Below, one piece after another: positions 13,874 to 48,399 of a DNA stretch of 64,000 nt. The notes below the pieces were generated by a model. The model saw only the letters and a program-made list of their open reading frames with translations. It made no database searches and was not told where the DNA came from. Position numbers and translations under genes: made by a program. The stretch lies in the NCBI RefSeq assembly GCF_055900595.2, contig NZ_CM148325.1; one strand, given 5' to 3'. How positions within the stretch are numbered: position 1 is the first letter of the stretch; every line of letters begins with the position of its first letter.

Positions 13874-13898
13874 GCCCGCACATTGCTGCGGGCTTTTT
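13874..13898 (+). terminator. Intrinsic terminator after uspF
   Basis: Hairpin GCCCGCA-cattgc-TGCGGGC followed by TTTTT. Confidence 0.6.
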
Positions 13899-14041
13899 GA
13901 TTCATTTCGCAAATGTGCTGACATTTTCCCCTCTAATCCGTACCATACACGCCACAGTTTTTATATCAGATTTCTTATGCTGGGCGTTCCGGCATGACGC
14001 ATACTCTTCTGATGCCATATAACGAATTGAGTCGCTTTTAA

Positions 14042-20341: not shown

Positions 20342-21250
20342 TTAACTTTGCAGATAGCCGCATTCTCGCCGAAATTGCGTGATTAATGACGCGGTCAGTG
20401 GTGTCTGGCGACTATCACGCCGCTGAATCAAATAATAGGCCGCTTTCGGTAAAATTTCGCTAACCGGCAACATCACCAGCCCCTGTCCGTGCAAGGGATC
20501 GCAGCCCATTTCTTCAGGTAGTATGCTGAGAAAATCGCTTTTTGCCACCAGACTGATACAGGCTGAAAACGTCTCGCAGACTACGCCGACCTGTGGCGTT
20601 TGCGCCTGATCGTCAAGCAATTCACTCAACTGTTTGTAGTAGCTGCCGTGTGGCGTCGGCATTGTCCAGCTGTAGTCCAGTAACTGTTTGATCGAACGGG
20701 CACCAATGGCGGGATGTCCCGGGCGGCAAAAGATCGCGAATTGCTTTTCCAGTAATTTCTCAAAAGTAAATTCGTGGTCGTAGGGTCCCTGATAATAGGT
20801 ATTGATGGTGAAATCCAGTTCTCCCTGTCGCAATTCATTAATCATCGACACCAGTTGCCCTTCCATAATGCGTACTTTTACCTGCGGATGCTGCTGATGA
20901 AAACGAGATATGACAGCTGGCATCAGACTGCGGGAAATACTGGCCCCCATGCCGATATTAATTTGCCCTGCCAGTTGCCCTTGTCGTTGGCGAATATCCT
21001 CTTGCGCTGCGCGCAGCTCTTCAAGAATAAGACTGGCGTGCTGATAAAAACTTTCACCGGCATCAGTTAACGTCACGCCTTTACTACGGCGAAAAAAGAG
21101 TTGCGCCGCTAACCCTTCTTCCAGCTCCTGAATAGATTTACTCAGTGCCGGTTGCGACATATTCAACATGCGGCTCGCTCCGCGAATGCTGCCCTGACGA
21201 GCCACTTCAACAAAAGCCCGAATTTGATGAATTTTTACCTGAAAAGCCAT
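20342..21250 (-). CDS. abgR: LysR-type regulator AbgR
   Basis: 302-aa ORF with N-terminal HTH (LNMSQPALSKSIQELE); divergent from abgA. Confidence 0.9.
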   Translation of the reverse strand: MAFQVKIHQIRAFVEVARQGSIRGASRMLNMSQPALSKSIQELEEGLAAQLFFRRSKGVTLTDAGESFYQHASLILEELRAAQEDIRQRQGQLAGQINIGMGASISRSLMPAVISRFHQQHPQVKVRIMEGQLVSMINELRQGELDFTINTYYQGPYDHEFTFEKLLEKQFAIFCRPGHPAIGARSIKQLLDYSWTMPTPHGSYYKQLSELLDDQAQTPQVGVVCETFSACISLVAKSDFLSILPEEMGCDPLHGQGLVMLPVSEILPKAAYYLIQRRDSRQTPLTASLITQFRRECGYLQS

Positions 21251-29946: not shown

Positions 29947-31560
29947 TCAATGTTTCACAATATACATAGTCCGGCTATACGCCACATCTTCCGGGTTATT
30001 AATGGGATAACCTTTCAGCCACGGTTTGATTAATCGTCCATTGGTATATTGATAAATTGGTGCAATCGGTGCTTGCTCCATGAGGATTTTTTCTGCCGCG
30101 TTGTAATCGGCATTACGCGCTTTAACGGTATTTTCCGTCGATGCCTGGGCCAAAACTTTGTCGTAGGCCGGGTTGTTAAAGCGTGAAATGTTGCCTGAAT
30201 GCGTTGACGTTAATAATGTCAGGAAGGTGGAGGGTTCATTATAATCCCCCACCCACGAGGCGCGGATAACATCAAAATTACCTGTATTACGACTATCGAT
30301 ATAGGTTTTCCATTCCTGATTTTGCAGTTTGACATCTACACCAAGGTTCTTTTTCCACATCGATGCCACAGCAATCGCAATTTTTTGATGGTTTTCTGAA
30401 GTATTATACAAAAGCGTCAGCTTCAGCGGTTTTTGCGGACCATAACCGGCTGCGCTCAACAAAGTTTTTGCCTGCGCATTCAGTTCTTCCTGACTCATTT
30501 GTTCAAACGGCGAAGGCTCCGGCGTGAATCCGGCAGTAACATCTGGCGTAAAATGCCACGCTGGTTTTTCGCCCGTCCCCAACACTTTTTCGGTCATCAG
30601 GCGGCGATCTATCGTCATACTTAATGCCAGGCGAACGCGCTGATCTGCCGTCGGCCCTTTTTGCGTGTTAAACGCATAATAATAGGTCCCGAGCTGCGGC
30701 GGCGTATAAACCTGCCCCGGAATATCCTTCAACAGCTTCTGATACATATTTTTCGGGAAGGATTCGGTGATATCAATATCCCCCGCGAGATAACGCTTAG
30801 TGGCAGCGGATTCCTGATTAATTGGCAGGAAGGTCACTTTTTGCAGTACCGTTTTGGCGTTATCCCAATAATGGGTATTCGGCACCACGACCAGTTTTTC
30901 ATTGACTACGCGCTCTTTAAGAACATAAGCGCCATTGCCGATCAGATTTCCGGGTTTCGTCCACTCTTTACTGCTTTCTACGTTGGCTTTTTGCACCGGG
31001 AAGAAGGCAAAGTTAGCGGTTAAATTCACAAACCACGGCAATGGTTTATCAAGCTGGATTTTCAAAGTATGGGCATCAACTGCGGTGACGCCAAGCTGGT
31101 CAGGCGTGGCTTTACCATCAATAATCGCCTGTGCGTTGTTGATTCCCGCCAGCGCGGCAAACCATGCAAATGGCGAAAGTGTTTTCGGGTCCACCAGACG
31201 CTGCCAGCTGTAGACAAAATCTTGCGCCGTTACCGGTGTGCCATCCGCCCATTTTGCGTTATCGCGCAGGGTAAAAGTCCAGATACGGTTGTCATTACTT
31301 TTCCACTGAGTCGCAACGCCAGGGACAATCTCCCCTTTCTCGTTCTGATTCACCAGTCCTTCAAATAGATCGCGAATGACCTGAATCTCTGGCAGGCCCA
31401 CGGCTTTAGCGGGATCCAGCGACGCAGGCTCATCTTTAATGTGGCGCACCAGCTCCTGCTTCTCTGCCAGTACTGTGCCGCTCGGAACTTCTGCAGCATA
31501 CGAAAGAGAAATGCTGCTGACCAACAGCGCACAACACGTGACTGAAACAGAGTGCTTCAT
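29947..31560 (-). CDS. mppA: Periplasmic murein tripeptide-binding protein MppA
   Basis: 537-aa ORF with signal peptide; OppA-like family 5 solute-binding protein. Confidence 0.9.
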   Translation of the reverse strand: MKHSVSVTCCALLVSSISLSYAAEVPSGTVLAEKQELVRHIKDEPASLDPAKAVGLPEIQVIRDLFEGLVNQNEKGEIVPGVATQWKSNDNRIWTFTLRDNAKWADGTPVTAQDFVYSWQRLVDPKTLSPFAWFAALAGINNAQAIIDGKATPDQLGVTAVDAHTLKIQLDKPLPWFVNLTANFAFFPVQKANVESSKEWTKPGNLIGNGAYVLKERVVNEKLVVVPNTHYWDNAKTVLQKVTFLPINQESAATKRYLAGDIDITESFPKNMYQKLLKDIPGQVYTPPQLGTYYYAFNTQKGPTADQRVRLALSMTIDRRLMTEKVLGTGEKPAWHFTPDVTAGFTPEPSPFEQMSQEELNAQAKTLLSAAGYGPQKPLKLTLLYNTSENHQKIAIAVASMWKKNLGVDVKLQNQEWKTYIDSRNTGNFDVIRASWVGDYNEPSTFLTLLTSTHSGNISRFNNPAYDKVLAQASTENTVKARNADYNAAEKILMEQAPIAPIYQYTNGRLIKPWLKGYPINNPEDVAYSRTMYIVKH

Positions 31561-31742
31561 AAGTTTCCCTCAAACCTGCGTTAATAATCATGCGTAATTA
31601 TTTGTTTCGCCTTAAAGAAATGCAAACAACTTCCGGCAAAAAAGTGATACAAGATCGATAACATAGCGTTGAAGAAAAGGATTTGATAATCCGCAAAATT
31701 TGCACAACACTGCCTGTAATACTTCCTGAACCAGAGACGATT

Positions 31743-32471
31743 ATGACCGTAACCCGCCCACGCGCCGAACGCGGCGCATTTCCGCCCGGAACAGAACATT
31801 ACGGACGTTCATTATTGGGCGCGCCTTTGATCTGGTTTCCGGCCCCAGCCGCCAGTCACGAAAGTGGTTTGATTCTGGCTGGCACCCACGGTGATGAAAA
31901 CTCTTCGGTCGTGACCCTCTCCTGTGCTCTGCGGACATTGACACCTTCTTTGCGCCGCCATCATGTGGTGCTGTGTGTGAATCCTGACGGTTGCCAGTTA
32001 GGGTTACGGGCCAATGCTAATGGCGTGGATTTAAATAGAAACTTTCCGGCAGCAAACTGGAAGGAAGGTGAAACGGTTTATCGCTGGAACAGCGCCGCTG
32101 AAGAACGTGATGTCGTTTTACTGACAGGTGACAAACCTGGCTCCGAACCTGAAACTCAGGCGCTGTGCCAGCTTATACATCGCATTCAACCTGCCTGGGT
32201 GGTCTCATTCCACGATCCACTGGCCTGTATTGAAGACCCCAGACACAGCGAATTAGGCGAATGGCTGGCCCAGGCGTTTGAATTGCCTCTGGTAACCAGC
32301 GTCGGTTATGAAACACCTGGCTCTTTCGGCAGTTGGTGTGCGGATCTCAACCTGCATTGCATCACCGCAGAGTTTCCGCCCATCTCCTCCGACGAAGCCA
32401 GCGAAAAATATCTCTTTGCGATGGCAAACTTGCTGCGCTGGCATCCTAAAGATGCAATTCGCCCGTTGTGA
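31743..32471 (+). CDS. mpaA: Murein peptide amidase A (gamma-D-Glu-Dap amidase)
   Basis: Track ORF 31683..32471; start moved to MTVTRPRAERG (242 aa); zinc carboxypeptidase-like HGDE motif. Confidence 0.85.
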   Translation: MTVTRPRAERGAFPPGTEHYGRSLLGAPLIWFPAPAASHESGLILAGTHGDENSSVVTLSCALRTLTPSLRRHHVVLCVNPDGCQLGLRANANGVDLNRNFPAANWKEGETVYRWNSAAEERDVVLLTGDKPGSEPETQALCQLIHRIQPAWVVSFHDPLACIEDPRHSELGEWLAQAFELPLVTSVGYETPGSFGSWCADLNLHCITAEFPPISSDEASEKYLFAMANLLRWHPKDAIRPL

Positions 32472-33411
32472 ACTGAAGCGCCGGTTCCACATCTACCGCC
32501 AGCCAGGTCGGTCCGTCAAGATCGGCGAAACTGACCTGCGGCACCAGCGGTAAAGCGGCGCTAATGGCACGAGAGGTACACAACATGCAGCCCAGCATCA
32601 GACTAAAACCTTGTGCACGTGCTTCAGTCGCCAGCGCCAGCGCTTCCGTCAGGCCACCCGTTTTATCGAGCTTAATGTTAACCATCTCATAGCGCCCTTT
32701 CAGCGCCTTCAGATTGCTACGAGTATGACAACTTTCATCAGCACAAATCGGTAACGGATGAATAAAATTCTCCAGCGCCGCATCGTCCTGCGCAGGAAGC
32801 GGTTGTTCAAGCATCGCAACGCCTAAATCCGCCAACAGCTGGCAACGCGCCGCCAACCCTTCTGCACGCCAGGATTCATTTGCATCAACGATCAACGTCG
32901 CATCGGGCACAGCCGTGCGAATTGCCACCATCCGCTCACTAATAAGATGGTTATCCAGCTTCACTTTCAGTAATTTCGCGCCTGCCTGCCAGAGTGTTGA
33001 TGCACTATTGGCCATCTGATCAGGCGTACCGATGACTACCGTCTGGGCAGTGGTGACTGTCTCGGGAAGCGTTATGCCGATCAAATCAGCCAGCGATTGC
33101 TGCTGTTTTCGCGCCGCCAGATCCCACAATGCACAATCCAGCGCATTACGTGCTGCGCCGGCAGGGAGAATTTTTTGCAACTCCTCCCGTGTCAGCCCTT
33201 TCTCTAATTGCGGCACGACGCTCATAATTTGCGCCATTACCGAGGCATCACTTTCTCCATAACGCGGATACGGCGTGCATTCACCGGTGCCTTTAATACC
33301 TTCTTCTTCCAGTTCAACCACCACCACGCGCGCTTCACTACGACTTCCCCGAGCAATCACAAACGGGGTATGTAAGGGCCAGGCTTCCTCAAATACCTTA
33401 ACGGTTCTCAT
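32446..33411 (-). CDS. ycjG: L-Ala-D/L-Glu epimerase
   Basis: Track ORF 32446..33453; start moved to MRTVKVFEEAW (321 aa); enolase superfamily; 3' end overlaps mpaA convergently. Confidence 0.9.
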   Translation of the reverse strand: MRTVKVFEEAWPLHTPFVIARGSRSEARVVVVELEEEGIKGTGECTPYPRYGESDASVMAQIMSVVPQLEKGLTREELQKILPAGAARNALDCALWDLAARKQQQSLADLIGITLPETVTTAQTVVIGTPDQMANSASTLWQAGAKLLKVKLDNHLISERMVAIRTAVPDATLIVDANESWRAEGLAARCQLLADLGVAMLEQPLPAQDDAALENFIHPLPICADESCHTRSNLKALKGRYEMVNIKLDKTGGLTEALALATEARAQGFSLMLGCMLCTSRAISAALPLVPQVSFADLDGPTWLAVDVEPALQFTTGELHL

Positions 33412-33529: not shown

Positions 33530-34033
33530 ATGTCACAAACCGTTCATTTCCAGGGCAACCCGGTTACAGTCGCCAATTCCATCCCGCTGGCGGGTAGCAA
33601 AGCGCAGACTTTTACTCTCGTGGCAAAAGATCTGTCTGACGTCACCCTCGGTCAGTTTGCGGGTAAACGCAAAGTGCTGAACATTTTCCCGAGTATTGAT
33701 ACCGGTGTTTGCGCCGCATCAGTACGTAAGTTTAACCAACTGGCAACCGAGATCGACAACACCGTTGTGCTGTGTATCTCTGCCGATCTGCCGTTCGCCC
33801 AGTCTCGTTTCTGCGGCGCAGAAGGTCTGAACAACGTTATCACCCTCTCCACTTTCCGTAACGCTGAATTCCTGCAAGCCTACGGTGTGGCAATTGCTGA
33901 TGGCCCACTGAAAGGTCTGGCAGCGCGTGCCGTTGTGGTTATTGATGAAAATGACAATGTGATTTTCAGCCAGCTGGTGGATGAAATCACCACCGAGCCG
34001 GATTACGAAGCAGCTCTGGCTGTACTGCGCTAA
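33530..34033 (+). CDS. tpx: Thiol peroxidase Tpx
   Basis: 167-aa ORF with peroxidatic Cys context ([10 protein letters not shown]). Confidence 0.95.
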
Positions 34034-34040
34034 ACAACTG

Positions 34041-34080
34041 TGCCGTTCACTGAATCACCACCGGTGAACGGCAGTTTTTT
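34041..34080 (+). terminator. Intrinsic terminator after tpx
   Basis: Hairpin TGCCGTTCAC-N13-GTGAACGGCA followed by TTTTTT. Confidence 0.6.
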
Positions 34081-34178
34081 GATCTACCAGTCCCACTATT
34101 TTCCAGAGTTCCTGCCACTATTCCCCCTAACCGTTGTGCATTAAGATTGCTCTTTGCCATTATTGGCCCAGCGGAGTG

Positions 34179-36230
34179 ATGACTATTATGGATGATAAAC
34201 AAATTACGGTCTGGCTTAAACACAATTGCTGTTCAACGGACATTCCTGCCATTGCCGAGGCACTAACGAACCATGCAGAATGGCTTTTAGAGCTAGCGCC
34301 AGATCCTATTGAACAAGGTAGTTCATGTTTACCGCCGACAGCTGCAGCCGGTATTTTTCTTGGCGCAGCGGCGATGGTTCACTGCGGCGAGGCTAGTGGT
34401 GCAGAAACCTGGCTCGAAGCAGCCATTACTGATTACCATTTCCTTAATCCAAATGGATATAGTTCATGGAGAGGCAGTACGCCTGTTTTTACAGCAATAT
34501 CGCGTTACCCGGCATTAAGAATGGTGTTATTTAACGCCGCTTGCGCAATGGAAGACTGGAATAAAGCATCCGCTGTTCTTGAATCGCTTTTCCATGCCAG
34601 CGATGTCCCGGAAGATAACCCTGTCGCCCCAAATTTTACCCCTTATGCGCTGAAAGCGTTTATCGCGGATTACCACCCGTTAGGGCCTGCTTATTATGAT
34701 GAAACCTGGTTGCTGGCAAAACAAGCGTGGTTAATTAATGCGGGCGTTCTGGATGAGCGAACCTGCAATACCTGGAAGCAATATACCCGCCACTTGCGCC
34801 ATTTGATCCACAATGCACAGTTTGCCGATGCGCTCTCTTTTGTACGCAGTAAAATAGAACCGTTAAATCATATCCATACCTACTCAGACTTTTATCTGTA
34901 TGCGATTGGTTTATTTTCTTATACTAGTCAGCTAAATGAAGCGCTGACCTGGATAAAACAGTTAATCCACAACAATGATGGTCATTTCTGTGATCTTTTC
35001 GTTTCAACTGGCAAAGAGCGCCGAATAAAGCCTGAACTTAGTACCTTGCTGAATAATCTCTTGCACAGCGCAGAGTTTCAGGCGTTGCAGGATAAATATC
35101 TCACCGTCGGACATGATGTTGTGCATTCTGGTCCCTTCATGTCAGTTTATGAAAAGGTTCTTGGCGGAAAGTCCCGAAAGCGCTGCGCGATTAGTCGAAA
35201 ATTAATCTCGCCCGGCGAAGCGGTTTATGAATATCGTCATTTGGATAGTGTGGAATATATTGCAGCGAAAGCGGCCTTTCAGACATCTGAGCTAAATAAT
35301 ATCGCCCACCGGCATCATAATGATAGTTATCAGTGGCATGAATTTGCCGCCCAATGGCCTCGTCGGGGTTCACTTTCTCACCCAGATATTGCCCGTTATT
35401 TGTTTGAGCGCCAGGAAGGAAAATGCTTTGATGCCGCAGAGTTTATACAACTGATTGCGGAACCGTTTGTCTTTCCGATGCGTTTCATATGGGTTGCCGG
35501 GTTGTCCTTTGAATTACATCAGTATCCGGATGCCTATTTCGTAAATGACAATATGGCGGGTGAATTTGTTAATCTCTGCTGGATGGCTATGAAATGCGGA
35601 CATGCTGGCGACATTTTCAAACAACTGGCCCACGAGCCGCATGACGTTGCTGACCCTATTTACGCCATGCTCGCCACGTTTGACCGCGCTGATTGCCGTA
35701 GCGCGGCCGCCGCGCACTTTGGACAACCGGAACTACCGGAAATAATGGCACTGGCTTTCAGTTCGAGGTTATCGCTCGACAGCGTCCTTACCATCGCTGA
35801 GTTTGGTAAAAATCAGCCGCGATTTTCACATGCGCTAGCAACGGCCCTCCTGCGTTACAACCTGCACATCTACTCAAACTATATGCCGCAGGTTAATTGG
35901 TACCTTCAGGGGCTGGAACACTATGCTTTGGCAAAAGGCGGTCAACTTTTAAATTTCTTTGTGCATATTCCAGAACAAATTCCCGTTCTGGCGACCATGC
36001 TGGAACATGGCGTATTAGTGCGTGGGATCGGTGAAGGTGCCTATGATGGTTATGATAATTCAGCAAATTCATTTCATCATGCCGTCGTGATGCACTGCCT
36101 CGCGCACGCGCCGGAAAAAGTCCGCTACTGGATGGAAACACCCTGGATTCAGAACTATTTAGTGAATGCGCCGCTGCGTCAAACGGCGCGCCATGTGGAA
36201 GCCTGGCATAAAAAGTTTGGCATCAAATGA
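34179..36230 (+). CDS. Hypothetical protein (~683 aa), function unknown; not present between tpx and tyrR in K-12 as I recall
   Basis: Track ORF 34134..36230 (opens with TTG); likely start ATG 34179 or 34188 downstream of GGAG (34174..34177). No signal peptide, TM segment or Walker A motif seen; Trp/Tyr/His-rich, apparently helical. Sits between tpx terminator and a GC hairpin (36239..36259) shared with the tyrR 3' end. Confidence 0.6.
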   Translation: MTIMDDKQITVWLKHNCCSTDIPAIAEALTNHAEWLLELAPDPIEQGSSCLPPTAAAGIFLGAAAMVHCGEASGAETWLEAAITDYHFLNPNGYSSWRGSTPVFTAISRYPALRMVLFNAACAMEDWNKASAVLESLFHASDVPEDNPVAPNFTPYALKAFIADYHPLGPAYYDETWLLAKQAWLINAGVLDERTCNTWKQYTRHLRHLIHNAQFADALSFVRSKIEPLNHIHTYSDFYLYAIGLFSYTSQLNEALTWIKQLIHNNDGHFCDLFVSTGKERRIKPELSTLLNNLLHSAEFQALQDKYLTVGHDVVHSGPFMSVYEKVLGGKSRKRCAISRKLISPGEAVYEYRHLDSVEYIAAKAAFQTSELNNIAHRHHNDSYQWHEFAAQWPRRGSLSHPDIARYLFERQEGKCFDAAEFIQLIAEPFVFPMRFIWVAGLSFELHQYPDAYFVNDNMAGEFVNLCWMAMKCGHAGDIFKQLAHEPHDVADPIYAMLATFDRADCRSAAAAHFGQPELPEIMALAFSSRLSLDSVLTIAEFGKNQPRFSHALATALLRYNLHIYSNYMPQVNWYLQGLEHYALAKGGQLLNFFVHIPEQIPVLATMLEHGVLVRGIGEGAYDGYDNSANSFHHAVVMHCLAHAPEKVRYWMETPWIQNYLVNAPLRQTARHVEAWHKKFGIK

Positions 36231-36267
36231 ACGTTGCCGCTGCGCCTTAACGGCGCAGCCAGCACAA

Positions 36268-37809
36268 TCACTCTTCGCTTTTCTTCTGGTTTAAGCCATA
36301 TTCCCGCAACTTATTGGCAATCGCGGTATGCGAAACACCGAGACGTTTTGCCAGTTTGCGTGTGCTGGGATAATTGCGATAAAGCTGGGTTAATACCGAG
36401 CGTTCAAAACGGCTGGTGATTTCGTCCAGCGAACCTTCCATCGCATCTTCGCCCACGGCTACCGTTGCGGCGTCATAATCCGGTAACAAAATATCCTGTG
36501 GACGCAGCTCATAGCCGTCCAGTTGTGTCAGTGCGCGATAGATAGCGTTCTTTAACTGCCGCACATTTCCCGGCCACGCATAACGCGTAAGTACAGTATT
36601 CAGGTCAGCGGCCAGTTTCGGACGCGGCACGCCCTGCTCGTCGGCAAAGCGGGCGACGAACAGCTCGGTTAACGGCATGATGTCCTGCGGACAATCACGT
36701 AGCGGCGGCAGATTGAGCGTCAACACGTTCAGACGATAATAGAGATCTTCACGGAACACGCCTTTTTGCACCAGTTCGACCAAATTCTTCTGCGTAGCGC
36801 AAATAACCCTTACATCGACATGCACTTCATGATCTTCACCAACTCGACGGAAAGTACCATCATTAAGGAAACGCAGTAATTTCGCCTGCATCCGTGGTGA
36901 CATCTCACCTATTTCATCCAGCAGCACCGAACCACCGTTCGCCTGCTCAAAGAATCCTTTCTTCCCTTCCGGAGCATGACCAAAGAGCTCACTCTCGACC
37001 GCATCTTCCGGTATAGACGCACAGTTCAGCGCCAGGTAAGGTTTGCTCGCTCTGGGGCTTGCCTGATGGCAGGCGTAGGCAAAGAGATCTTTACCTGTAC
37101 CGGTGTCACCCGTAATCAGCAACGGCGCGCTTAGCATCGCCAGTTTCTGCGCCTGTTCGACAACATGCTTCATTTTCGGGCTGACGGCGACAATTTGACT
37201 GAAGGCACTGACGTCCTGTGCAGCGACATTCTGCAACTGACGGCCCATACGAATCGTCGAGCGCAACATCACCACCGCACCGGTCAGAACGTGTTGATCA
37301 TTTTCATCCTGAAGATAAACAGGCGTAATCTCCATCAGGAAATTCTGCCCATTAATAACGACATGCTCGTTATGCGAGTCTTGCGGTTCGCTTTCCAGCC
37401 AGCGTAAAAAATTAAAGCCGTTAATTAATTGCGCGGCGGTATGGTTGCGCAGGCGATCCAATTTTTGCCCAAAAAGCTGACAGCTCGCCGGGTTCGCCAT
37501 ATCCACTTTGCTTTTCATATCAACAGAAAGCACAGGTTCAGGCAACGCCTCCAGTAACGCGCTCAACGCCAGATGCTCACGTTCGGAAGGCATCCACGGG
37601 ACAGTACGCACATCGGTAACACCTGCAATACGGCGTATTTCGGCCATCAGACTGCTGAAGCTCTCAAACTCCAGTTCAGCAAAATTGAGGTAGATTCGCC
37701 CAATGGGGTCAATCTCAATACCGCGTAAATCAATGCCTCTTAGCACGAGTAGATCGAGTAATTCGCGGGTCAGACCGAGTCGGTCTTCACAAAAGACTTC
37801 CAGACGCAT
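36268..37809 (-). CDS. tyrR: Transcriptional regulator TyrR (sigma54-type AAA+ domain, HTH)
   Basis: Track ORF 36268..37836; start moved to MRLEVFCEDRLGLTREL (513 aa); Walker A GDTGTGKD. Confidence 0.95.
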   Translation of the reverse strand: MRLEVFCEDRLGLTRELLDLLVLRGIDLRGIEIDPIGRIYLNFAELEFESFSSLMAEIRRIAGVTDVRTVPWMPSEREHLALSALLEALPEPVLSVDMKSKVDMANPASCQLFGQKLDRLRNHTAAQLINGFNFLRWLESEPQDSHNEHVVINGQNFLMEITPVYLQDENDQHVLTGAVVMLRSTIRMGRQLQNVAAQDVSAFSQIVAVSPKMKHVVEQAQKLAMLSAPLLITGDTGTGKDLFAYACHQASPRASKPYLALNCASIPEDAVESELFGHAPEGKKGFFEQANGGSVLLDEIGEMSPRMQAKLLRFLNDGTFRRVGEDHEVHVDVRVICATQKNLVELVQKGVFREDLYYRLNVLTLNLPPLRDCPQDIMPLTELFVARFADEQGVPRPKLAADLNTVLTRYAWPGNVRQLKNAIYRALTQLDGYELRPQDILLPDYDAATVAVGEDAMEGSLDEITSRFERSVLTQLYRNYPSTRKLAKRLGVSHTAIANKLREYGLNQKKSEE

Positions 37810-37956: not shown

Positions 37957-39018
37957 TTATTTTTCGGCAGGAGTTTTGCCTTTTTGCAGCGTCTCTTTCA
38001 CCTGACCAATAAGCTGGCGACGGAAATCCCCGAGGCGAGGTTTGTCATCGTCAATCCACGGCAGCGGGCGGCAAAGCTCCATAGCTTTAATCCCCAGTCG
38101 TGCCGTCAGAAGTCCAGCACCAATCCCCTGAGCTGCGCGGGTAGACAAACGCGCAGCGAGATCTTGCGACATCCAGTCCATCCCCACTTCGCGCACCAGT
38201 TCGCTGGCTCCGGCAAAAGCGATATTCAGCAATACCAGCTTAAACAGGCGCAAACGGCTGTAATATCCCAGTTCAATGCCATACAACGTGGCGATGCGAT
38301 TAATCAAACGCAGATTGCGCCAGGCGATAAATGCCATATCCACCAGCGCCAGTGGGCTAACGGCAATCATTAACGTTGATTCCGCCGCTGAGCGACTGAT
38401 TTCGCGCCGCGCCTGAGCATCTAAAACCGGCTGGACCAGATGAGCATACAGGCTGACCACTTCACGATCGTTCTGCGTTTCATGGATTGACGCATACCAG
38501 CGTTGCAGCGCCGGATGGGACTGATCAATACCCGCCTGCTGCGCCAGTTTTTCACAAAATGCGCGGCCTTTGCCCGTGCCGTGGCTGTGCAATAAATCAC
38601 GCGCTTCGTCGCGTTCATGGGCGCGCTGTCGCAAGCGCCATAAGCGCCGCCACTCTGTTACCACAGAACCGACGCCAGCGCCGATAATCAATGCCCCAGC
38701 GGCACATCCACCCAGCGCTACCCAATCCTGAGTTTGCCAGGCATTCATCGTCCACTGCACGCCCTGTCCGACAACGCTTGCACCAAACAGAGCCAACCCG
38801 CCCATCACCATTTTGCGCCACAGGCTGCGTTTCGGACGTAACGCTGCGTCCATCACCGCTTCAACTTGCCCCTCTTCTTCCTGCGCTTCGTCGAGCGTGG
38901 CCGGGGCAAAATTTTGCGCCTGATTTTCGTCAAAGGTCTGCTGCGCCCTGAATTTTGGATTCTGATCGACCTCCAGCGGACCGTCGAAATCAATACGTGG
39001 TTTTAACGGTTCGGTCAT
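37957..39018 (-). CDS. ycjF: YcjF, inner-membrane protein (UPF0283)
   Basis: 353-aa ORF with central TM helices; translationally coupled to ycjX (4-nt overlap). Confidence 0.85.
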
Positions 39019-40412
39019 CGCAATTTATCTCCTATTAAAAATTCCAGCGCAGCATCAAGACGAATATGCGGCAGCGGTTTGTCGACATCCATCACCTGCG
39101 GACGAAACGCCTCAAACTGGAAGCCTTGCTTATCCCAGAACGCCTGACCAGGCAAACGTGCGGGAACTTCGCCAGGATAAACAGTGAGCGGTGCGCCATC
39201 ACTGAGTCGATTACCGCGCAGCGCCGGGATTTTCTCACCGTTAACATCAATAATGCCGCTGGTGGTCGCCTGAACTGACGCCAGCCCCAGGCAGTCCATA
39301 CTGATCCCTTCGAACGCCGCATTTTGCCAGGCATCCTGAATCAGTTGTTGCAGTAATGAAACCATATTGGCGTGCTGATCGATGGTCACATGATCCGCTT
39401 TAGTGGCAGCAAACAATAGCTTATCGATAACCGGCGAAAACAAGCGCCGGAACAAGGTACGCTGCCCGTAGTGGAAGCTTTGCATCAGCTGCGTCAGCGC
39501 CAGACGCATATCATTGAATGCTTGTGGTCCACTGTTGAGAGGTTGCAGGCAATCCACCAGCACAATCTGCCGATCAAAGCGCAGAAAATGATTTTTATAG
39601 AACCCCTTCACCACTTTCTCGCAGTAATAATTAAATCGTTCGCGCAGCATTCCGGCATTGGTGTGCTTGTCGGCCTGTGCAAGTTTTGATTCGCCCCAGG
39701 CATCGACATCCGGCCACGGGAAGAATTGCAACGCGGGCGCACCTGCCATATACCCCGGCAAGACAAAACGCCCAGGCTGAATAAAGTGCAGCCCCTGCTG
39801 TTTACAGTGGTGGAGATAATCGGTCCATGCGGCAGCAATGTCTGCAAGACGGTTTTCGTCGGCAGGTGCTAGTGGGTCCAGCCCTTCGCACATCATTCGC
39901 CATTTTGCCGACCATTCGCCGCGCTGACCATTGAGTAAGCCCGTCATCTGGCGCGACCAGCTTAAATAGTCCTGCGCCAACATCGGCAAGTCGAGTAACC
40001 ATTCGCCGGGATAATCCACTATCTCCAGATACAACGTGGAAGTGTCTTTGAAGTGACGCAACAGCGAATCGTTCGATTTATAGCGTAGCGCCAGGCGAAT
40101 CTCACTGACGCCGCGTGTTGGGGTCGGCCAGGCGGGAGGATCGCCATATAACTGCGCCAGCCCTTCATCGTAGGTGAAGCGTGGAATGCCAAAGTCACGC
40201 TGGGGAATGCGTTTTACGCCCAGCAGGCGCTCTTCACGCACCGCACTTAATAGCGGCAAGCGTGCTCCGGCATGAATATTGAGCAACTGATTGACCATCG
40301 CAGTGATAAACGCGGTTTTGCCGCTGCGGCTAAGTCCGGTTACAGCGAGGCGCAGATGTCTGTCGACACCCCGATTCACCAGCGCATTAAGTTCATTTTT
40401 AAGTCGCTTCAT
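39015..40412 (-). CDS. ycjX: YcjX, P-loop NTPase
   Basis: Track ORF 39015..40499; start moved to [12 protein letters not shown] (465 aa); Walker A GLSRSGKT. Confidence 0.85.
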
Positions 40413-40556
40413 TGCTGTCCTGTGGACCAGAAAAAAATCATTCGTAAGGATATGAATGTGGGGGCCATGCCCTTGATTATCAACTGCCCGTGTTGTCATC
40501 TTGAGGCGAACTCCATAAGATGTGCAGCATTCACGTTCGGACGGAGTTCCTGACCT

Positions 40557-41555
40557 ATGTCCCCTACTATTTATGATATTGCCAGGGTTGCCGGCGTATC
40601 AAAATCCACCGTATCACGCGTGCTGAATAAGCAAACCAATATCTCCCCGGAAGCGCGCGAAAAAGTGTTACGGGCCATTGAAGAATTACAGTATCAGCCA
40701 AATAAACTGGCCCGCGCGCTGACCTCTTCGGGCTTTGATGCCATTATGGTGATTTCTACCCGCTCGACCAAAACTACGGCGGGTAACCCGTTTTTCTCCG
40801 AAGTTTTGCATGCCATTACCGCCAAAGCGGAAGATGAGGGTTTCGACGTGATATTGCAGACGTCGCACAACCCAGCTGAAGACTTACAAAAATGTGAAAG
40901 CAAAATTAAGCAGAAAATGATTAAAGGCATTATTATGCTAAGTTCGCCAGCAGATGAGTCTTTTTTCGCCCAACTCGATAAATACGATATTCCGGTGGTA
41001 GTAATTGGCAAAGTTGAAGGTGAATATGCCCATGTTTATTCTGTCGATACCGATAATTTTGGCGACAGTATTGCGCTGACCGATGCATTAATTGAAAGTG
41101 GACATAAAAATATTGCCTGCCTACATGCTCCGCTTGATGTCCATGTTTCGGTTGACCGCGTTAATGGTTATAAGCAAAGTCTGGAAGATCATAATATTGC
41201 AGTGCGCAATGAGTGGATCGTTGACGGCGGTTATACCCATGAGACAGCACTGCAAGCCGCGCGGGAATTATTAAGCCAGTCACCGTTGCCTGAGGCAGTG
41301 TTTGCTACTGACAGCCTGAAATTAATGAGCATTTATCGTGCGGCGGCAGAGAAAAACATTGCTATTCCGCAGCAGTTAGCGGTGGTGGGTTATAGTAATG
41401 AAACGCTGTCGTTTATATTAACGCCTGCACCGGGCGGCATCGATGTTCCGACGCAGGAGTTAGGTCAACAAAGCTGCGAGTTATTATTCCGCTTAATTGC
41501 CGGAAAACCGTCACCACAAAATATTACCGTTGCCACGCATATGTCGTTGAAATAA
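40557..41555 (+). CDS. ycjW: LacI-family regulator YcjW
   Basis: 332-aa ORF with N-terminal HTH ([21 protein letters not shown]). Confidence 0.9.
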
Positions 41556-41569
41556 ATGCCAGCTACGTT

Positions 41570-41653
41570 GCCTGAATGCCGGATGCGATGCTGGCGCATC
41601 TTATCCGGCCTACATTTATAAACCGGATAAAGTACTCGCGCCGCATCCGGCAA
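41570..41653. repeat. REP/BIME element (two REP units)
   Basis: GCCGGATGCGATGCTGGCGCATCTTATCCGGCCTAC and CCGGATAAAGTACTCGCGCCGCATCCGGC between ycjW and ompG. Confidence 0.6.
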
Positions 41654-41665
41654 TTTAGCACATTA

Positions 41666-42571
41666 TCAGAACGCGTAATTCACACCGACACCTGCATAAT
41701 GGAATTTATCGCTGTCGCCTTCATCGTGATCCTGCCACTCAAACGCGTATTCCAGCGAAACGGAAAGACCATTCTGGAAATCATAACCGTAAAACAAACC
41801 AAGACGGTTAAAATCATGGCCTTCACGTTCGATATCATCCTGCCAGTCCCAGTTACTCCAGCGATCCAACCCAATGCGCGTATACGGTGTTACCGAGTGA
41901 TTGCCGAGCGTCAGCGGTAAATAGGCGCGAATTTCTTGCGTGGAGAATTCACCGTTATTGCGGCTGTCGTCCATATTGAAGCCGCGCTCGAGATAATAGT
42001 TCACTCGCAAGGCAACCGTTTCGTTGAAGGTATATTGCAGACCCGTTTCCGTTTCGACACGGGTATCAGCATAACCGGTTGTATTCAGATCGTTGGCAAA
42101 TTTATACATCGACAGCCATCCGTTGAAACGTAAATCGTCAGTCAGTTTCACATCCCAGTCTGGCGCGATTTTCCAGCGCTGCATATTTGCCGTGTCTTTA
42201 CCCGGTTCATCAACATAGTGATAACCATAGTTACGGAAACCACCGGTCAGGCCGAAACTGAAATCATCGCTTTCGAGAAACTGATAATGCACTTCGAGTT
42301 CCGGGCGATCAAACCAGTTTCCACGTTTACCCGCGCTATAATCTACCGGCCCTTCCTGGTAATAAGCCAGCGATATTCTCCACGGCCCATTGGCAGCATT
42401 AAAATAGACGGAAGGCTCCGCCAGCCCGTCCATATCTTCGCCATAACCCTCGACGTTTTCTATTTCGTACATCGCGCCGATATTAAAGTGCCAGTCGTTT
42501 TTTTCCTCAGCCTGTGCGCAGGCCATTCCCGCACACATCACCAGTGCGGTACAGGGTAATAACTTTTTCAT
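41666..42571 (-). CDS. ompG: Outer membrane porin OmpG
   Basis: 301-aa ORF with signal peptide and C-terminal aromatic residue (…VNYAF). Confidence 0.9.
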   Translation of the reverse strand: MKKLLPCTALVMCAGMACAQAEEKNDWHFNIGAMYEIENVEGYGEDMDGLAEPSVYFNAANGPWRISLAYYQEGPVDYSAGKRGNWFDRPELEVHYQFLESDDFSFGLTGGFRNYGYHYVDEPGKDTANMQRWKIAPDWDVKLTDDLRFNGWLSMYKFANDLNTTGYADTRVETETGLQYTFNETVALRVNYYLERGFNMDDSRNNGEFSTQEIRAYLPLTLGNHSVTPYTRIGLDRWSNWDWQDDIEREGHDFNRLGLFYGYDFQNGLSVSLEYAFEWQDHDEGDSDKFHYAGVGVNYAF

Positions 42572-42616
42572 TATTGTTCCTTGTATTATCCTGGGGGAAT
42601 GCCTTCCCCCCTGTAT

Positions 42617-43699
42617 TTAGCGAATTGCTATTTCCGTTTCTGCATCAAAGAAATGACATTTGGTCATATCAAAATGAATAGTGATATTTTCTCCTGCATG
42701 ATAATCATTTAACGCACCAGCACGGACCACTAACTCGTGCCCCCCAACCGTGGTGTAGAGCATAAATTCCGCACCGGTTAATTCTGCCACGCTAATTTTG
42801 GCGGAAATGTTATTTTCCTCTTGCGCATCCGGATGAATATCTTCCGGGCGTATTCCCATCACGATGGGCTTATGCAAGCTTTCCTGCGTTTTCAGAACCG
42901 CTAATTTATCTTCGGGAATGGTTAATTTAAGCGTTTCCGTAACGAATTTATCGCCATCGATCGTGCCGCGAATAAAATTCATTGCTGGTGACCCAATAAA
43001 GCCGGCAACAAACATATTCGCCGGTTGGTTATAGACCGTTTTCGGCGCACCGACCTGCTGAACAATCCCATCCTTCATAATGACAATCCGCGTCGCCATG
43101 GTCATCGCTTCGGTCTGATCGTGGGTCACGTAGATCATGGTGGTGTTCAGTTTCTGATGCAGCTTGCTGATTTCCGCGCGCATTTGTACGCGCAGCTTGG
43201 CATCCAGGTTAGAGAGCGGTTCATCCATTAAAAACACGCCCGCTTCGCGCACAATCGCCCGTCCAAGCGCCACACGCTGGCGTTGCCCGCCGGAAAGCGC
43301 ACCCGGCTTGCGTTTCAGGTACTCACGCAGGCCAAGGATTTGCGCCGCCCAGTTAACCCGCTCATCTATCACCTCTTTGGCGATTTTTTGCATCTTCAGG
43401 CCAAACGCCATGTTGTCGTAGACCGTCATATGCGGATACAGCGCGTAGTTCTGGAACACCATCGCAATATTGCGCGCTTTGGCCGGAACGTCGTTCATTC
43501 GTTTGCCGTCGATCAACAGATCGCCGCCGCTAATCTCCTCAAGCCCGGCAATCATACGCAGCGTCGTCGATTTACCACAGCCCGACGGGCCGACAAATAC
43601 AATGAACTCTTTATCGGCAATTTCCAGGTTGAAGTCCTTCACCACATGCACCTGGTTATCGTAGATTTTTTGAATATGTTGTAACGAAAGCTGTGCCAT
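42617..43699 (-). CDS. ycjV: ABC transporter ATP-binding protein YcjV (MalK-like), full length
   Basis: 360-aa ORF with Walker A GPSGCGKST, signature LSGGQ and Walker B FLMDEPLS; intact here, whereas I recall a truncated pseudogene in K-12. Confidence 0.85.
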   Translation of the reverse strand: MAQLSLQHIQKIYDNQVHVVKDFNLEIADKEFIVFVGPSGCGKSTTLRMIAGLEEISGGDLLIDGKRMNDVPAKARNIAMVFQNYALYPHMTVYDNMAFGLKMQKIAKEVIDERVNWAAQILGLREYLKRKPGALSGGQRQRVALGRAIVREAGVFLMDEPLSNLDAKLRVQMRAEISKLHQKLNTTMIYVTHDQTEAMTMATRIVIMKDGIVQQVGAPKTVYNQPANMFVAGFIGSPAMNFIRGTIDGDKFVTETLKLTIPEDKLAVLKTQESLHKPIVMGIRPEDIHPDAQEENNISAKISVAELTGAEFMLYTTVGGHELVVRAGALNDYHAGENITIHFDMTKCHFFDAETEIAIR

Positions 43700-43712
43700 G
43701 TTGATTCCTTTG

Positions 43713-44372
43713 CTATACGTTTTGCCAGAAGGCCGATAACCGCGGCCAGGTCAGAGATTCCGTTGAGGGCAGCAACAGTTGCGCCCCGGTTAAGCTCGTG
43801 CCGATCCCCACCGAGCGCATACCGCTGGCGTTAATGGCGTCAATACCCGCCTGCGCATCTTCAATGCCAATGCAGGCCTGTGGAGGCACGCCCAGCCCTG
43901 CACAGGCGGCGAGAAAGATTTCCGGGTCCGGTTTCGAGTGTTTAAGTTGGGAAGCGTCCGCGCAGAAGGTGAAAAACTCGCGCAGCTCCAGCGCCGCTAA
44001 AATTGTTGGGGCATTCAGGGAGACGGAGGCCAGCCCTACCGGGATGCCTTGCGCCCGAAGATCTGCCAGCAAAGGCCGAATTCCCGGCAGAACAGCGTTA
44101 ACCGTCAGTTCGCGCAGTGAGTGGACGTAGAGCAGATTTTTGCGATACGCCAGTTGCGCCCGCTCTTGCACGTTAAAGTCGCCCTCTTTGCCCCCGTGTT
44201 GCAGAATGCGTCGCAGGGACTCATCGCGGCTGATCCCTTTTAACGTCTCGTTAAATTGCACATCGATGCCGATGCCGATTTCGGCAGCAATCTGCTGCCA
44301 TGCCTGGAAGTGCAGATGTGCGGTGTCGGTGATCACGCCATCCAGATCGAAAATTACCCCTTGTAGTTTCAT
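43713..44372 (-). CDS. ycjU: Beta-phosphoglucomutase
   Basis: 219-aa ORF with HAD motif I ([12 protein letters not shown]). Confidence 0.9.
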
Positions 44373-44388
44373 TCATCCTCTTGATGCG

Positions 44389-44402
44389 TGGTAGCGGTCC
44401 CA
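44389..44402. promoter_or_regulatory. Putative LacI-family (YcjW) operator, copy 2
   Basis: Minus strand TGGGACCGCTACCA, identical to the 14-mer upstream of ycjM; inside the ycjT 3' end, 17 to 30 nt upstream of the ycjU ATG. Confidence 0.45.
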
Positions 44403-46267
44403 TTGAAGGGCAAAATAAAATCACCCAAACAGAAAACAGACTCTTCAGTCACGGAAATAAGCTGACCGTTCAACCGCAGTGAAACGGGCGCAGAAGTTCG
44501 AATCGCAATACGCTGCGCGTCGAGAGTGACCTGTAATTCGCAGCCCTGCCAGAACAGAGGGAAAGACAACTGTTGCCACTGCTCAGGTAACGCCGGATTG
44601 AGAAGTAATTCGCCGTCGCGCACGCTGACTCCGGCAAAACCCTGAATCGCGCCCAGCCAGATAGCGCCAGTTGCGGCAGCGTGGATACCGTCATCACAGC
44701 TATGCGGATCAGCACCGAGATCGATTTCACTCCCCTCGCGCCAGAACGGGTAACTCTGCGCAAGCAAGCCACAACGCGCGGCAACAATGCCGTGGATCGC
44801 TTTACTCAATGACGAGTCGTGAATGGTGCGCGGTTCATAAAATTGCAGATTGGCGAGACAAGAGGCCGCTGAAAATTGTTCCGGTAGCATGTAATTGAGC
44901 ATCACTACATCGGCCTGCTTGAGGATCTGCATCTCGTTCACTTCTGCGCGTGAATAATCCAGCAGAATGGTTTGCTTCCCGGCCGCCGCTTTGTATTTCG
45001 CCAGATCTATCGCCGGTTTCGCCATAAACGAATCATCCTGCGGCAAAACGCCGTCGGGCTGAATTTCTGGCATCCACAGCTCTTTGAGGAACATGTCGGC
45101 ACGATGAATAAACGCGTCGTCGCTACAGCAAAACTGGCGAGCAATATTCAGCGCCTGTTGGACGTTGTAGCAGGCCATATAACTGGTGTATGCGTTATTA
45201 TTAACGTGTTCGGTATATTCGTCTGGCCCAATAACATCATGAATTTCCAGGCGGTCGTTAACCCTTACCGCACGGCTAATCCAGAACTTTGCGGTCTCCA
45301 GCAGTAGCGCCATGCCTTCGTGAGCGATGAAGCTTTCATCTCCCGTTACCTGCCAGTATTGAATAACCGCCCAGGCGATATCGGCAACCAGATGATGTTC
45401 TGCCTGCGCTGAGGCCACTTTTTGCCGCAGCCCGGTACGAATGTTAATGGCGGCAAATTCCGGCGTTTCTTCTTCGCCGCTACGTGCGCTCTCCCACGGA
45501 AACAGCGCGCCCTGCCAGCCATTGCGTCGCGCTTTCTCCTGCGCCCCTGGTAAGTTGTGCCAGCGATAGCGCAGCAAACTCCGGGCAATCGTCGGTTCGC
45601 TAAACAGATGGAACGGCAGCATGAACACTTCCGTATCCCAGAAAACATGGCCTTTGTAGCCTTCCCCGGTTAAGGCTTTTGCCGCAATGCTGCTACGCTC
45701 GTCGTGGGCGGGCGTCATAATACGCAAATGATAAAGCGCATAGTCTAACGCCCGCTGATCGTGCGTATCGCAACTCTTTACCGTGATACGACGTTTCTGC
45801 CACCATTGCTGCCAGTTTTCTGTCGATGCTGCAAGAAGTTGGTCATAACTCTGTTGTGTAGACATTTCGAGCTGGCGAAGCGACCCACTGCCCCACTCGT
45901 CTAAAGCGGCTTGTCGGTCGTCCCGCCAGTCAATCCACACCCGCTTTTGCAGGGTCAGTGTTTCACCTGTGCGAAGTTGCGTGCTGGTATGTTGCAGCAA
46001 ACGGCGCTCTTTTGCGGTATAGCACTGCTGAACGTCACCATCCGCCTGACAGTGACAACTGATGGCCACATCACTGCGCCCATCCTGGGTGGTGTAGATC
46101 CCCTGCATCAAATGCTGACCAAACACCCGCACCTGGGTTTCGTCAAGATGCTGGCGACCGTGGTTGGTTTGCGTGGCGTTAATGCCTGTTGAGATCAGCA
46201 CTGATGCCTCGGCGTCCAGCGGGGTAATACTGATTTCCAGCGCGATCAACGGCAGTTGATCTGTCGA

Positions 46268-46978
46268 AATAAATATCCTCCGGCATAGCCGGAGGTTTTT
46301 CAAATGCGCCTGTAAGGCTCTGTTACCAGCCGCGCCCTAACAGGCGCATACGATCTGACATTTGCATTCAACTTCGTTACTTACGGCCCGTAAACGGGCT
46401 GCCCGGATATGGAATCGATAACTGCTCCCCCATTTTATCCTCTTCAAGCTGGTGCTTTATGTAGTCCTGTATCTTCGCCGTGTTCTTACCCACCGTATCG
46501 ACATAGTACCCTCGGCACCAGAACTCCCTGTTTCTGTATTTGAATTTCAAATCCCCAAACTGCTCGTAAAGCATCAGACTGCTTTTCCCTTTCAGATATC
46601 CCATAAAGCCGGATACGCTCATTTTGGGTGGGATTTCCACAAGCATATGGATATGATCTGCGCAGCACTCTGCTTCCAGAATCCGTACGCTTTTCCACTC
46701 ACACAGCTTTCTCAAAATACTGCCTATCGCCCTACGCTTCTCTCCGTAAAACGCCAGTCTTCGGTATTTCGGCGCAAAAACTATGTGATATTTACAGTTC
46801 CAGCGGGTGTGCGCTAAGCTCTTTTCGTCCCCCATTGGGACCCCCTTTTGATTTCTTGTTTGACACTTGCAGTTGCCAGACCGCAAGGTGTTTTAACAAA
46901 TCAAAAGGGGTTTTAATAACTGGCTCAAAGCTGAAAGCTTTCCGGAACCCCCAGCCTAGCTGGGGGTTTTCTGTGCAC
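46268..46978 (-). mobile_element. IS200-type insertion sequence (IS200/IS605 family), about 711 bp
   Basis: Boundaries inferred from where ycjT homology stops and resumes (within a few nt). Upstream of tnpA: palindrome CCCCCAGC-ctag-GCTGGGGG (46943..46961) and a stem-loop overlapping the tnpA RBS. Downstream end: hairpin CCTCCGGC-ata-GCCGGAGG (46277..46295). Confidence 0.85.
46377..46835 (-). CDS. tnpA: IS200 transposase TnpA (HUH Y1)
   Basis: Track ORF 46377..46886; start moved to MGDEKSLAHTRWNCKYHIVFAPKYRR (152 aa); HUH motif (ADHIHML) and C-terminal Tyr region (RGYYVDTVG). Confidence 0.9.
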   Translation of the reverse strand: MGDEKSLAHTRWNCKYHIVFAPKYRRLAFYGEKRRAIGSILRKLCEWKSVRILEAECCADHIHMLVEIPPKMSVSGFMGYLKGKSSLMLYEQFGDLKFKYRNREFWCRGYYVDTVGKNTAKIQDYIKHQLEEDKMGEQLSIPYPGSPFTGRK

Positions 46979-47343
46979 AACAAAGCGACGACTTGCAAGG
47001 GTGAACCCTGCGCCGTCGCTCGTGCGCCAGATAACACTGCGGCGTAATTCTCCACTGGCAAAGTCAAGCTCACGCTGCCACGCTTCGCGGGATAACGAAA
47101 AAATCTCGCCGTTTAGGGTAATTTCCATTCCCACCACGTCTGGCAGATTCACCAGTTCGTTGATTTCACCTTTCCCGGCTCGATGATAAAGCCCTGCCAG
47201 ATACATGCCGCGCGTCTGCCGCGTGTAATCTTCTTCATGGCTGGCACGAAGCCCAAGATAGCCGTTTCCCTGCGCCATTAATGAGGCATATTTATTCAGG
47301 GTATGCTGGCTGAAATGGGGTTCCGTTAATGTTACTGGCCTGG

Positions 47344-48399
47344 TCATAATTCCACACGCGTCCCTGTTTCTGCGGATTGATACAGCGCCGCCACCAGTTG
47401 CTGGATGATGTACCCTTGCTCGGCGTCGGCAATCATCACTGGCTTGCCCTGTACGTGATTGATAAAGGCTTCCATGCTGCGCAAATGACGGTTGTCGTCG
47501 GCCAGTTCCCGTTGCATCAACGTCATTAATTCACCGTTGTTGTCGGTATAGATATGCGCCGGAAATAGCGTGGCTCCCGCTTTATCGCCGCAAAAGCTGA
47601 CGTTCATAATCGACTGTTCGCGGATGTTGAGTGCAAATGATGTCTCCAGCCAAAGAATGCCGCCGTTATGAAATTCAATGGTGCCAAACAGCGAATCTTC
47701 GACGCTGTAGGTTGCCGGGTCCCACTCGCCAAATTGACCACAGCTCTTTTGCGGGCCGATCTTTTGAAAGCTATGCGCATTCACGCTTTTCACTGCCGGA
47801 AAGCCCAGCACATACATCGCGGCATCCAGCATATGAATGCCGATGTCGATCAGCGGGCCACCGCCCTGCAGTTCTTTATTGGTAAAGACACCCCAACCGG
47901 GAACGCCGCAGCGACGCAGGGCGCGAGCGGTCGTCACGTAAATCTGACCCAAAACGCCGTTGGTCACCTGTTCACGCAGTTGTTGCGTATCAAGGGCAAA
48001 ACGATGGTGAAAGTCGTAGGCCAGCACCTTGCCCTGTTTGCGCGCGGTATCGCACATTTCCCGCGCCTGTTCTGGCGTCATGGCGGGCGGTTTCTCGCAC
48101 ATCACATGGCAGCCTGCCTCCAGCGCCATCAGGGTATGCTCGTAATGAAAACGGTTAGGTGAACAGACGCTTATCACGTCAGGTTTTACCGCCAGCAGCA
48201 TGGCCTGCGGATCGTCCCACACGGATGCGTTCCCGTATTTCTCTGCCAGCGCCTGCGCCTGGGAAAGGCGGCTGTCACAGACAGCCACCAGTTCCAGATC
48301 GTTGCGGGTGCAGTAGTACGAAGCATGAACCTTATCCGCCACCTGGCCCGCGCCTATTATCGCGACCCGCAGCGGAGAGCTTGTCATTGCACTTTTCAC
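47344..48399 (-). CDS. ycjS: Gfo/Idh/MocA-family oxidoreductase
   Basis: 351-aa ORF with Rossmann motif (VAIIGAGQVADKVH); stop overlaps ycjT start. Confidence 0.9.
   Translation of the reverse strand: MKSAMTSSPLRVAIIGAGQVADKVHASYYCTRNDLELVAVCDSRLSQAQALAEKYGNASVWDDPQAMLLAVKPDVISVCSPNRFHYEHTLMALEAGCHVMCEKPPAMTPEQAREMCDTARKQGKVLAYDFHHRFALDTQQLREQVTNGVLGQIYVTTARALRRCGVPGWGVFTNKELQGGGPLIDIGIHMLDAAMYVLGFPAVKSVNAHSFQKIGPQKSCGQFGEWDPATYSVEDSLFGTIEFHNGGILWLETSFALNIREQSIMNVSFCGDKAGATLFPAHIYTDNNGELMTLMQRELADDNRHLRSMEAFINHVQGKPVMIADAEQGYIIQQLVAALYQSAETGTRVEL

Follow-up and report, generated by a model that had tools for sequence, protein, structure and literature searches.

The murein tripeptide catabolic cluster of Enterobacteriaceae, with mppA, mpaA and ycjG, is one of the described systems closest to the locus analysed here. 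Its MpaA protein was treated by Uehara & Park (2003) and Maqbool et al. (2012), both taken from the references of PMC6448482. In other Enterobacteriaceae this cluster has an identical layout, with a spacer of about 182 bp and the same conserved blocks, and no structural difference from the present locus was found.

The second point of comparison is Escherichia coli K-12 MG1655, where 2628 bp separate the start codons of mppA and mpaA. The gene order is mppA - pgrR - ycjY - truncated SDR gene - mpaA, and the initial annotation of the locus had given it correctly. The SDR remnant corresponds to an 'NAD-dependent dehydratase' pseudogene, i.e. ymjC/ymjD. The product of pgrR reportedly acts as a repressor.

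The PgrR regulon was described by Shimada et al. (2013), cited here through PMC5934670 and PMC4797297. The PgrR targets on record in PMC5934670 include the ycjY/ycjZ spacer, obtained by SELEX, and the ycjY-ymjDC-mpaA operon. A third related architecture, in which a LysR regulator and a divergent catabolic operon form a mobile cassette, is that of the islet absent from the present locus and not that of the locus itself.

Organisation of the mppA-mpaA locus

The DNA analysed is a single stretch of 64 kb, hereafter the window. As shown in Table 1, it carries mppA, mpaA and ycjG. The initial annotation had described the first two as divergent genes with start codons 182 bp apart and one common control region, and the coordinates confirm this: 31560 is the last base of the mppA start codon (read as CAT on the + strand), and 31743 is the first base of the mpaA ATG. 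Of the further genes, ynaI lies beyond mppA, and tpx and tyrR lie beyond ycjG. A 100% identical stretch is present in strain Z0117EC0005, where RefSeq gives the order mppA, mpaA, ycjG with no gene between the first two.

Table 1. Features of the mppA-mpaA-ycjG locus in the window.
Feature	Position	Strand	Description	Evidence
mppA	29947..31560	-	murein tripeptide ABC-transporter periplasmic binding protein, 537 aa, intact	ORF, tblastn, RefSeq WP_000683029.1
Divergent mppA/mpaA control region	31561..31742	.	unoccupied ('empty') site, 182 bp	
Conserved block AATTATTTGTTTC	31596..31611	.	holds the predicted mppA -10	conservation profile
Predicted sigma-70 mppA promoter	31597..31626	-	-35 TTTGCA (31626-31621), 18-nt spacer, -10 AATAAT (31602-31597)	
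Single copy of the 30-bp segment AAATGCAAACAACTTCCGGCAAAAAAGTGA	31618..31647	.	carried by both islet ends in E. coli sensu stricto	
Conserved block AATGCAAA	31618-31626			conservation profile
Conserved block	31644-31648			conservation profile
Candidate mpaA promoter or operator	31678..31714	+	TTGATA (31683-31688), 17 nt, AACACT (31706-31711)	
Conserved block AAnnATTTGAT	31678-31687	+		conservation
Conserved block TTTGCACAACACTGCC	31699-31714	+	16 nt	at least 80% conserved across 77 species, mostly at least 95%
mpaA	31743..32471	+	murein tripeptide amidase, 242 aa, intact	NCBIfam NF007897, RefSeq
ycjG	32446..33411	-	L-Ala-D/L-Glu epimerase; converges on mpaA and overlaps its 3' end	NCBIfam NF011708, RefSeq

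MpaA matched the equivalog NF007897 with 478.7 bits (cut-off 157), its residues 1-236 covering positions 1-236 of the 237 of the profile, and YcjG matched the equivalog NF011708 with 677.9 bits (cut-off 343). MppA gave a full-length, near-identical match to the K-12 protein (tblastn, 537 aa, displayed as 100%). Its best NCBIfam model was OppA, at 639 bits and under the cut-off of 947. MppA is a paralogue of OppA and not OppA itself, and a score below the cut-off is expected of a paralogue.

When PgrR, YcjY and the SDR remnant of K-12 were searched by tblastn in the 64-kb window, no match was obtained except a LysR paralogue with 26% identity at 20834-21235, which collinearity with annotated genomes places as abgR. 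Likewise, blastn of the K-12 insert DNA against the same 64 kb yielded zero matches. Both searches bear out the initial annotation, in which the pgrR/ycjY segment was missing at this locus. No family was matched in an Rfam scan of the 182-bp spacer.

The window and K-12 share mppA, mpaA, ycjG, tpx, tyrR and ynaI in identical order and orientation. The coding DNA of mppA, mpaA, ycjG and ynaI is 96-97% identical, that of tpx 99%, and the promoter-proximal spacer sequence on both sides is common to the two. They differ in that the window is without a 2416-bp insert and one copy of a 30-bp segment, and has no PgrR, YcjY or SDR remnant. The two marks of a K-12-type PgrR-controlled locus, namely pgrR between the two genes and ycjY with the SDR gene upstream of mpaA, are both missing from the window.

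The alignment of the junction with K-12 suggested in the initial annotation located the endpoints of this difference. In anchored alignments, the K-12 junction consists of the window spacer plus 2416 bp placed between two copies of the 30-bp segment (positions 7724-7753 and 10170-10199 of the K-12 locus, L001), so that the islet position between both copies corresponds to either end of the single copy in the window. With its variants, the segment is written AAATGCAAACAACTTCC[AT/GG]CAAAAAAGTGA. Two copies each are also present in ST131 and in Escherichia sp. E1V33, while the window and all outgroups have one. The direct repeats flanking the islet in K-12 and ST131 are identical at 28 of 30 positions. 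In O157 the two copies were recovered as a direct repeat of only 25 nt, because a 1-base gap breaks the left copy. The left islet boundary is identical in K-12, EC45, ST131, O157 and E1V33, and the right boundary is identical in the long and short forms of the islet.

Ancestry and distribution of the empty site

Species-representative genomes were scanned with MpaA, which gave 80 loci, E. fergusonii not being among them. In 77 of the 80 species representatives, mppA and mpaA are divergent, separated by 138-316 bp that contain neither pgrR nor ycjY, and the most frequent spacer length among these 77 is 182-185 bp. They include E. albertii, E. whittamii, the clade VI strain MOD1-EC7003 and two further divergent Escherichia, together with Citrobacter, Enterobacter, Leclercia, Kluyvera, Raoultella and Kosakonia. 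Among the 80 loci, the pgrR-ycjY islet was found in Escherichia sp. E1V33 only. The 182-bp spacer of the window aligns base for base with those of E. albertii, E. whittamii, clade VI and other Escherichia, and it has the features of the ancestral divergent pair, i.e. a length in the range of about 180-190 bp with AATTATTTGTTTC, AATGCAAA, ATTTGAT and TTTGCACAACACTGC at 31596-31714.

Judged from these sequence comparisons, the empty site is ancestral and near-universal in Enterobacteriaceae, and the K-12 layout is derived. The initial annotation had implied that the strain lacks "the" local regulator. That direction has to be turned round, as the back-to-back layout came before that of K-12. For the mppA/mpaA arrangement, the window is the norm and K-12 is the exception.

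In Salmonella enterica subsp. arizonae and diarizonae (L027 5449-7677; L028), the slot between mppA and mpaA carries another insert of 3.2-3.4 kb. Its three genes have CdtA/C, endonuclease (CdtB-like) and CdtA/C domains, respectively, and it looks like a cytolethal distending toxin operon. Since this insert differs from the pgrR islet, the mppA-mpaA slot has been used independently at least twice.

Over these 64 kb the window is closer to cryptic clade I than to E. coli sensu stricto. PMC10100065 describes this clade as sister to E. coli sensu stricto, with the rank of a subspecies, and assigns 2013C-4282 (in its Table S1) and EC42405 to it, and MOD1-EC7003 to clade VI. The alignment of the window with 2013C-4282 is collinear from one end of the 64 kb to the other, with 98.1-98.2% identity. 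This identity holds at 97-99% along the whole stretch, whereas identity to K-12 is uniformly lower, with 97.5%, 96.8%, 97.4%, 93.9% and 94.7% in successive blocks; over the last 1.4 kb it is 99.1%. Structurally, the window differs from K-12 in having neither the Rac prophage nor the islet, and in 2.2 kb of additional DNA that separate tpx from tyrR. The window and 2013C-4282 share the empty mppA-mpaA site, the tpx-tyrR insert and the lack of Rac next to ttcA; they differ by about 2% divergence and by an IS200-like insertion in ycjT found only in the window. The empty site is present in both clade I genomes, 2013C-4282 and EC42405.

At spacer positions 12, 20, 25 and 100, K-12, EC45, O157 and ST131 differ from the outgroups, and the window has the outgroup state. 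Such outgroup states lie on either side of the junction. A tree of mppA places the window and 2013C-4282 outside the remaining E. coli. A tree of mpaA+ycjG groups the empty-site haplotypes, that of the window among them, in one clade within E. coli, with ST131 as its sister. Both are neighbour-joining trees of 1.6 kb without support values, in a region that is clearly recombining. The placement next to ST131 is attributed to recombination and remains a caveat. Of the PCR primers of PMC10100065 for a 1368-bp marker gene specific to clade I, neither had a match with up to 3 mismatches in the 64-kb window; this marker may map elsewhere.

Because the window is collinear with 2013C-4282 at 98.1-98.2%, versus 94-97.5% with K-12, it most likely comes from a clade I or clade-I-like strain deposited as E. 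coli, as far as one 64-kb region can indicate.

Several other features of the window were observed along this comparison. The 2.2-kb insert between tpx and tyrR (34028-36269), which is missing in K-12, contains an ORF of 698 aa (34134-36230, + strand) with no match in Pfam or NCBIfam. It is present in 32 of 5426 complete genomes, of which 16, including 2013C-4282, have at least 95% identity and 16, mostly STEC, have 90-95%. In Z0117EC0005 it is annotated as two hypothetical proteins. A 705-bp insertion at 46274-46978, absent from K-12 and 2013C-4282, encodes an IS200-like Y1 transposase (ORF 46377-46886, - strand; Pfam PF01797, 126 bits) and splits ycjT, the kojibiose phosphorylase gene, into the ORFs 44369-46303 and 46925-47347. 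From ycjF to the pspE/puu region (38000-62600), the window is only 93-95% identical to K-12. Its 38000-46000 part was matched by 5182 records at 90-95%, 231 at 95-99% and 9 at 99% or more, and in this haplotype the ycj sugar-utilisation operon has diverged much more strongly than the genes next to it. At the start of the window (1-14050), an autotransporter gene, ydbH, ldhA, hslJ, nifJ, ompN and uspF run straight into ttcA, as in 2013C-4282, while K-12 has Rac (intR to stfR) beside ttcA.

Among the 5426 complete genomes deposited as E. coli, islet DNA is present in 5244 and absent from 182. A contiguous junction, i.e. an empty site, was found in about 172 of the 5426 with a 601-bp query, and in 190 genomes with a 2.6-kb query when pieces up to 1.8 kb apart were joined. 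With the 601-bp junction query, nine complete genomes reached at least 99% identity, and eight of these were at 100%. Relatives of the strain with 100% identity include Z0117EC0005, E200086, E500002 and E600003. By these counts, hardly any genome with an empty site can have the islet at another position. The initial annotation had suggested a search for pgrR and ycjY in the rest of the genome of this strain. The collection-wide numbers, 182 genomes free of islet DNA against about 172 with an empty site, make a pgrR elsewhere in it unlikely.

Probable origin, decay and loss of the pgrR-ycjY islet

At least three states of decay are on record for the islet. In O157:H7 it contains pgrR, ycjY, a frameshifted second alpha/beta hydrolase gene and an intact gene for a 212-aa SDR oxidoreductase. 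In ST131 the second hydrolase gene is gone and the SDR gene is intact. In K-12 the second hydrolase gene is also gone and the SDR gene is reduced to its first 46 codons. Some strains have a small queH fragment between mppA and pgrR.

Homologues of the intact SDR protein, with about 78-84% identity, occur in sequences named from Enterobacter, Raoultella, Klebsiella, Citrobacter, Kluyvera and Serratia. The context was examined in two cases, a Serratia marcescens contig and assembly GCA_006862385.1. Both carry the four-gene cassette, in which a LysR regulator gene is divergent from a hydrolase-hydrolase-SDR set, and the DNA of both aligns collinearly with the O157 islet (77-79% identity). Compared with the O157 islet, the protein identities are 86-87% for PgrR, 92-93% for YcjY and 78-82% for the SDR. 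The homology extends from the pgrR stop codon to about 80 bp past the SDR stop codon, and in both contexts the surroundings are unrelated to mppA/mpaA. In the assemblies of L092-L094 (around 10000-12000), the cassette homologue adjoins genes with AGS_C/SMODS, PycTM and SLATT_6 domains, which resemble CBASS- or Pycsar-like defence genes and are unrelated to the present observation.

K-12 and ST131 have 97.7-98.3% identity in the islet and 97.5-98.3% in the flanking genes. Because the islet is as divergent as its flanks, it is old within E. coli sensu stricto, which speaks for vertical inheritance from an early stage of this lineage. In E1V33, a divergent Escherichia species, a K-12-type truncated islet occupies L009 5431-7906, and its right repeat copy is of E. 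coli type while the left one is of native type. The islet of this strain is 97-98% identical to that of K-12, versus 86-90% for the flanks. As the islet is far closer to K-12 than the flanks are, this suggests a later import from E. coli by homologous recombination.

The islet was searched for terminal inverted repeats and for integrase, transposase or recombinase genes, and none was found, the flanking direct repeat being its sole feature. A transposon origin of the islet is unsupported, as it has no mobile-element hallmarks beyond this repeat.

Taken together, these features suggest that the lineage of the window most probably never received the pgrR-ycjY islet and kept the ancestral enterobacterial arrangement. 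A foreign four-gene cassette, with pgrR divergent from ycjY, the second hydrolase gene and the SDR gene, would have been inserted on the stem of E. coli sensu stricto, and this insertion into the spacer would have duplicated 30 bp. The islet would then have decayed from the O157 form to the ST131 form and further to the K-12 form.

The empty site of the window could also be due to allelic replacement, in which the islet was lost when an empty-site allele arrived from another Escherichia lineage. Such events seem to have occurred in some E. coli. Strain 2016C-3878 has ST131-like flanks and a clade-I-like tract of about 450 bp, which starts at the junction and extends to roughly 32165 on the scale of the window; per 150 bp, this tract differs from clade I at 0-1 positions and from ST131 at 5-8. 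The junction sequence of 2016C-3878, at 98.0%, is common to the ST457 strain CREC-544. In FDAARGOS_497 the clade-I-like tract is shorter, at about 150 bp. The empty site of MB53 and 7 other genomes (L089 5236-5352) lies within K-12-like flanks, with a 110-bp patch that carries 27 differences exactly at the junction. Among the loci compared, which do not include E. fergusonii, this patch had no close match. On the mppA side, 2016C-3878, FDAARGOS_497 and MB53 all have islet-type derived states, and in the first two strains these SNPs reach up to the repeat. For these E. coli sensu stricto genomes, the sequences indicate that the islet was probably lost through short homologous-recombination tracts that imported the empty allele, and not through repeat-mediated deletion. 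In the window, however, there is no mosaic boundary near the junction and the empty allele matches its own genomic background, so that allelic replacement is an unlikely explanation of this site.

A precise deletion, in which recombination or slippage between the 30-bp direct repeats restored a single copy, is slightly less likely still. The nearly identical repeats of K-12 and ST131 would be an ideal substrate for it, and the product would be structurally identical to the window, so that its exclusion depends on the flanking SNPs only. Since the islet appears to have the age of E. coli sensu stricto itself, empty lineages nested within this group must indeed have lost it. The window nevertheless has outgroup SNPs, and not islet-type derived ones, on both sides of the junction; throughout the 64 kb it agrees with clade I and not with E. 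coli sensu stricto, and it contains no islet remnant. Moreover, the genomes of the 2016C-3878, FDAARGOS_497 and MB53 type show a foreign tract at the junction and not a clean deletion. Finally, repeat-flanked segments can in principle drop out of assemblies, but a repeat of just 30 bp would not make a unique segment of 2.4 kb collapse, and with eight complete genomes 100% identical over the junction, about 172 with it contiguous and 182 without islet DNA, an assembly artefact is hardly conceivable.

Predicted promoters and the proposed role of PgrR

A conservation profile was made from the spacers of the 77 species representatives, in which several blocks show a conservation of 80-95% or more (Table 1). 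A consensus scan of 31500-31800 found the predicted mppA promoter as the sole promoter-like site, and both of its hexamers lie within blocks that have a conservation of at least 95% in the 77 species. The same scan made no call for an mpaA promoter. The site listed for mpaA, which has a weak -10, is a candidate proposed by inference only. The conserved blocks were also compared by eye with the consensus sequences of CRP, FNR, PurR, TyrR, ArgR and sigma-54, and no convincing fit was obtained.

The 30-bp duplicated segment contains the predicted mppA -35. As the insertion would have duplicated this segment, mppA would have kept its promoter and mpaA all of the 124 bp upstream of its start. Owing to the duplication, both K-12 genes retain the conserved promoter-proximal blocks.

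PgrR is most simply the LysR-type regulator of its own cassette, because the four-gene cassette recurs away from mppA/mpaA. This reading agrees with the SELEX target between ycjY and ycjZ and with the recorded ycjY-ymjDC-mpaA operon. PgrR would thus primarily serve the cassette, and its reported control of mpaA in K-12 would be due to read-through of the cassette operon into mpaA. Without the islet, the two genes of the window would be expressed only from the ancestral back-to-back promoters and without PgrR. Their regulation is predicted to differ, probably, from that of K-12, because there is neither PgrR nor read-through from the ycjY operon.

The feature of the window is an ordinary, already understood difference in gene content between lineages, and it has the standard layout of a well-characterised gene pair. 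At the mppA-mpaA locus, the K-12 reference represents the derived state. The locus also provides a clean example of how short tracts from an islet-free sister lineage erase an accessory islet in E. coli sensu stricto genomes. Because PgrR belongs to a cassette that is found without mppA/mpaA, PgrR-based models of the control of murein-peptide recycling should not be extended beyond E. coli sensu stricto. We also offer, tentatively and short of calling it probable, the reading that PgrR as a regulator of peptidoglycan-peptide recycling is an accident of E. coli sensu stricto, and that the ancestral control resides in the conserved spacer blocks, e.g. TTTGCACAACACTGCC. If this were true, another regulator would bind these blocks, and clade I would offer a natural PgrR-free background in which to find it.
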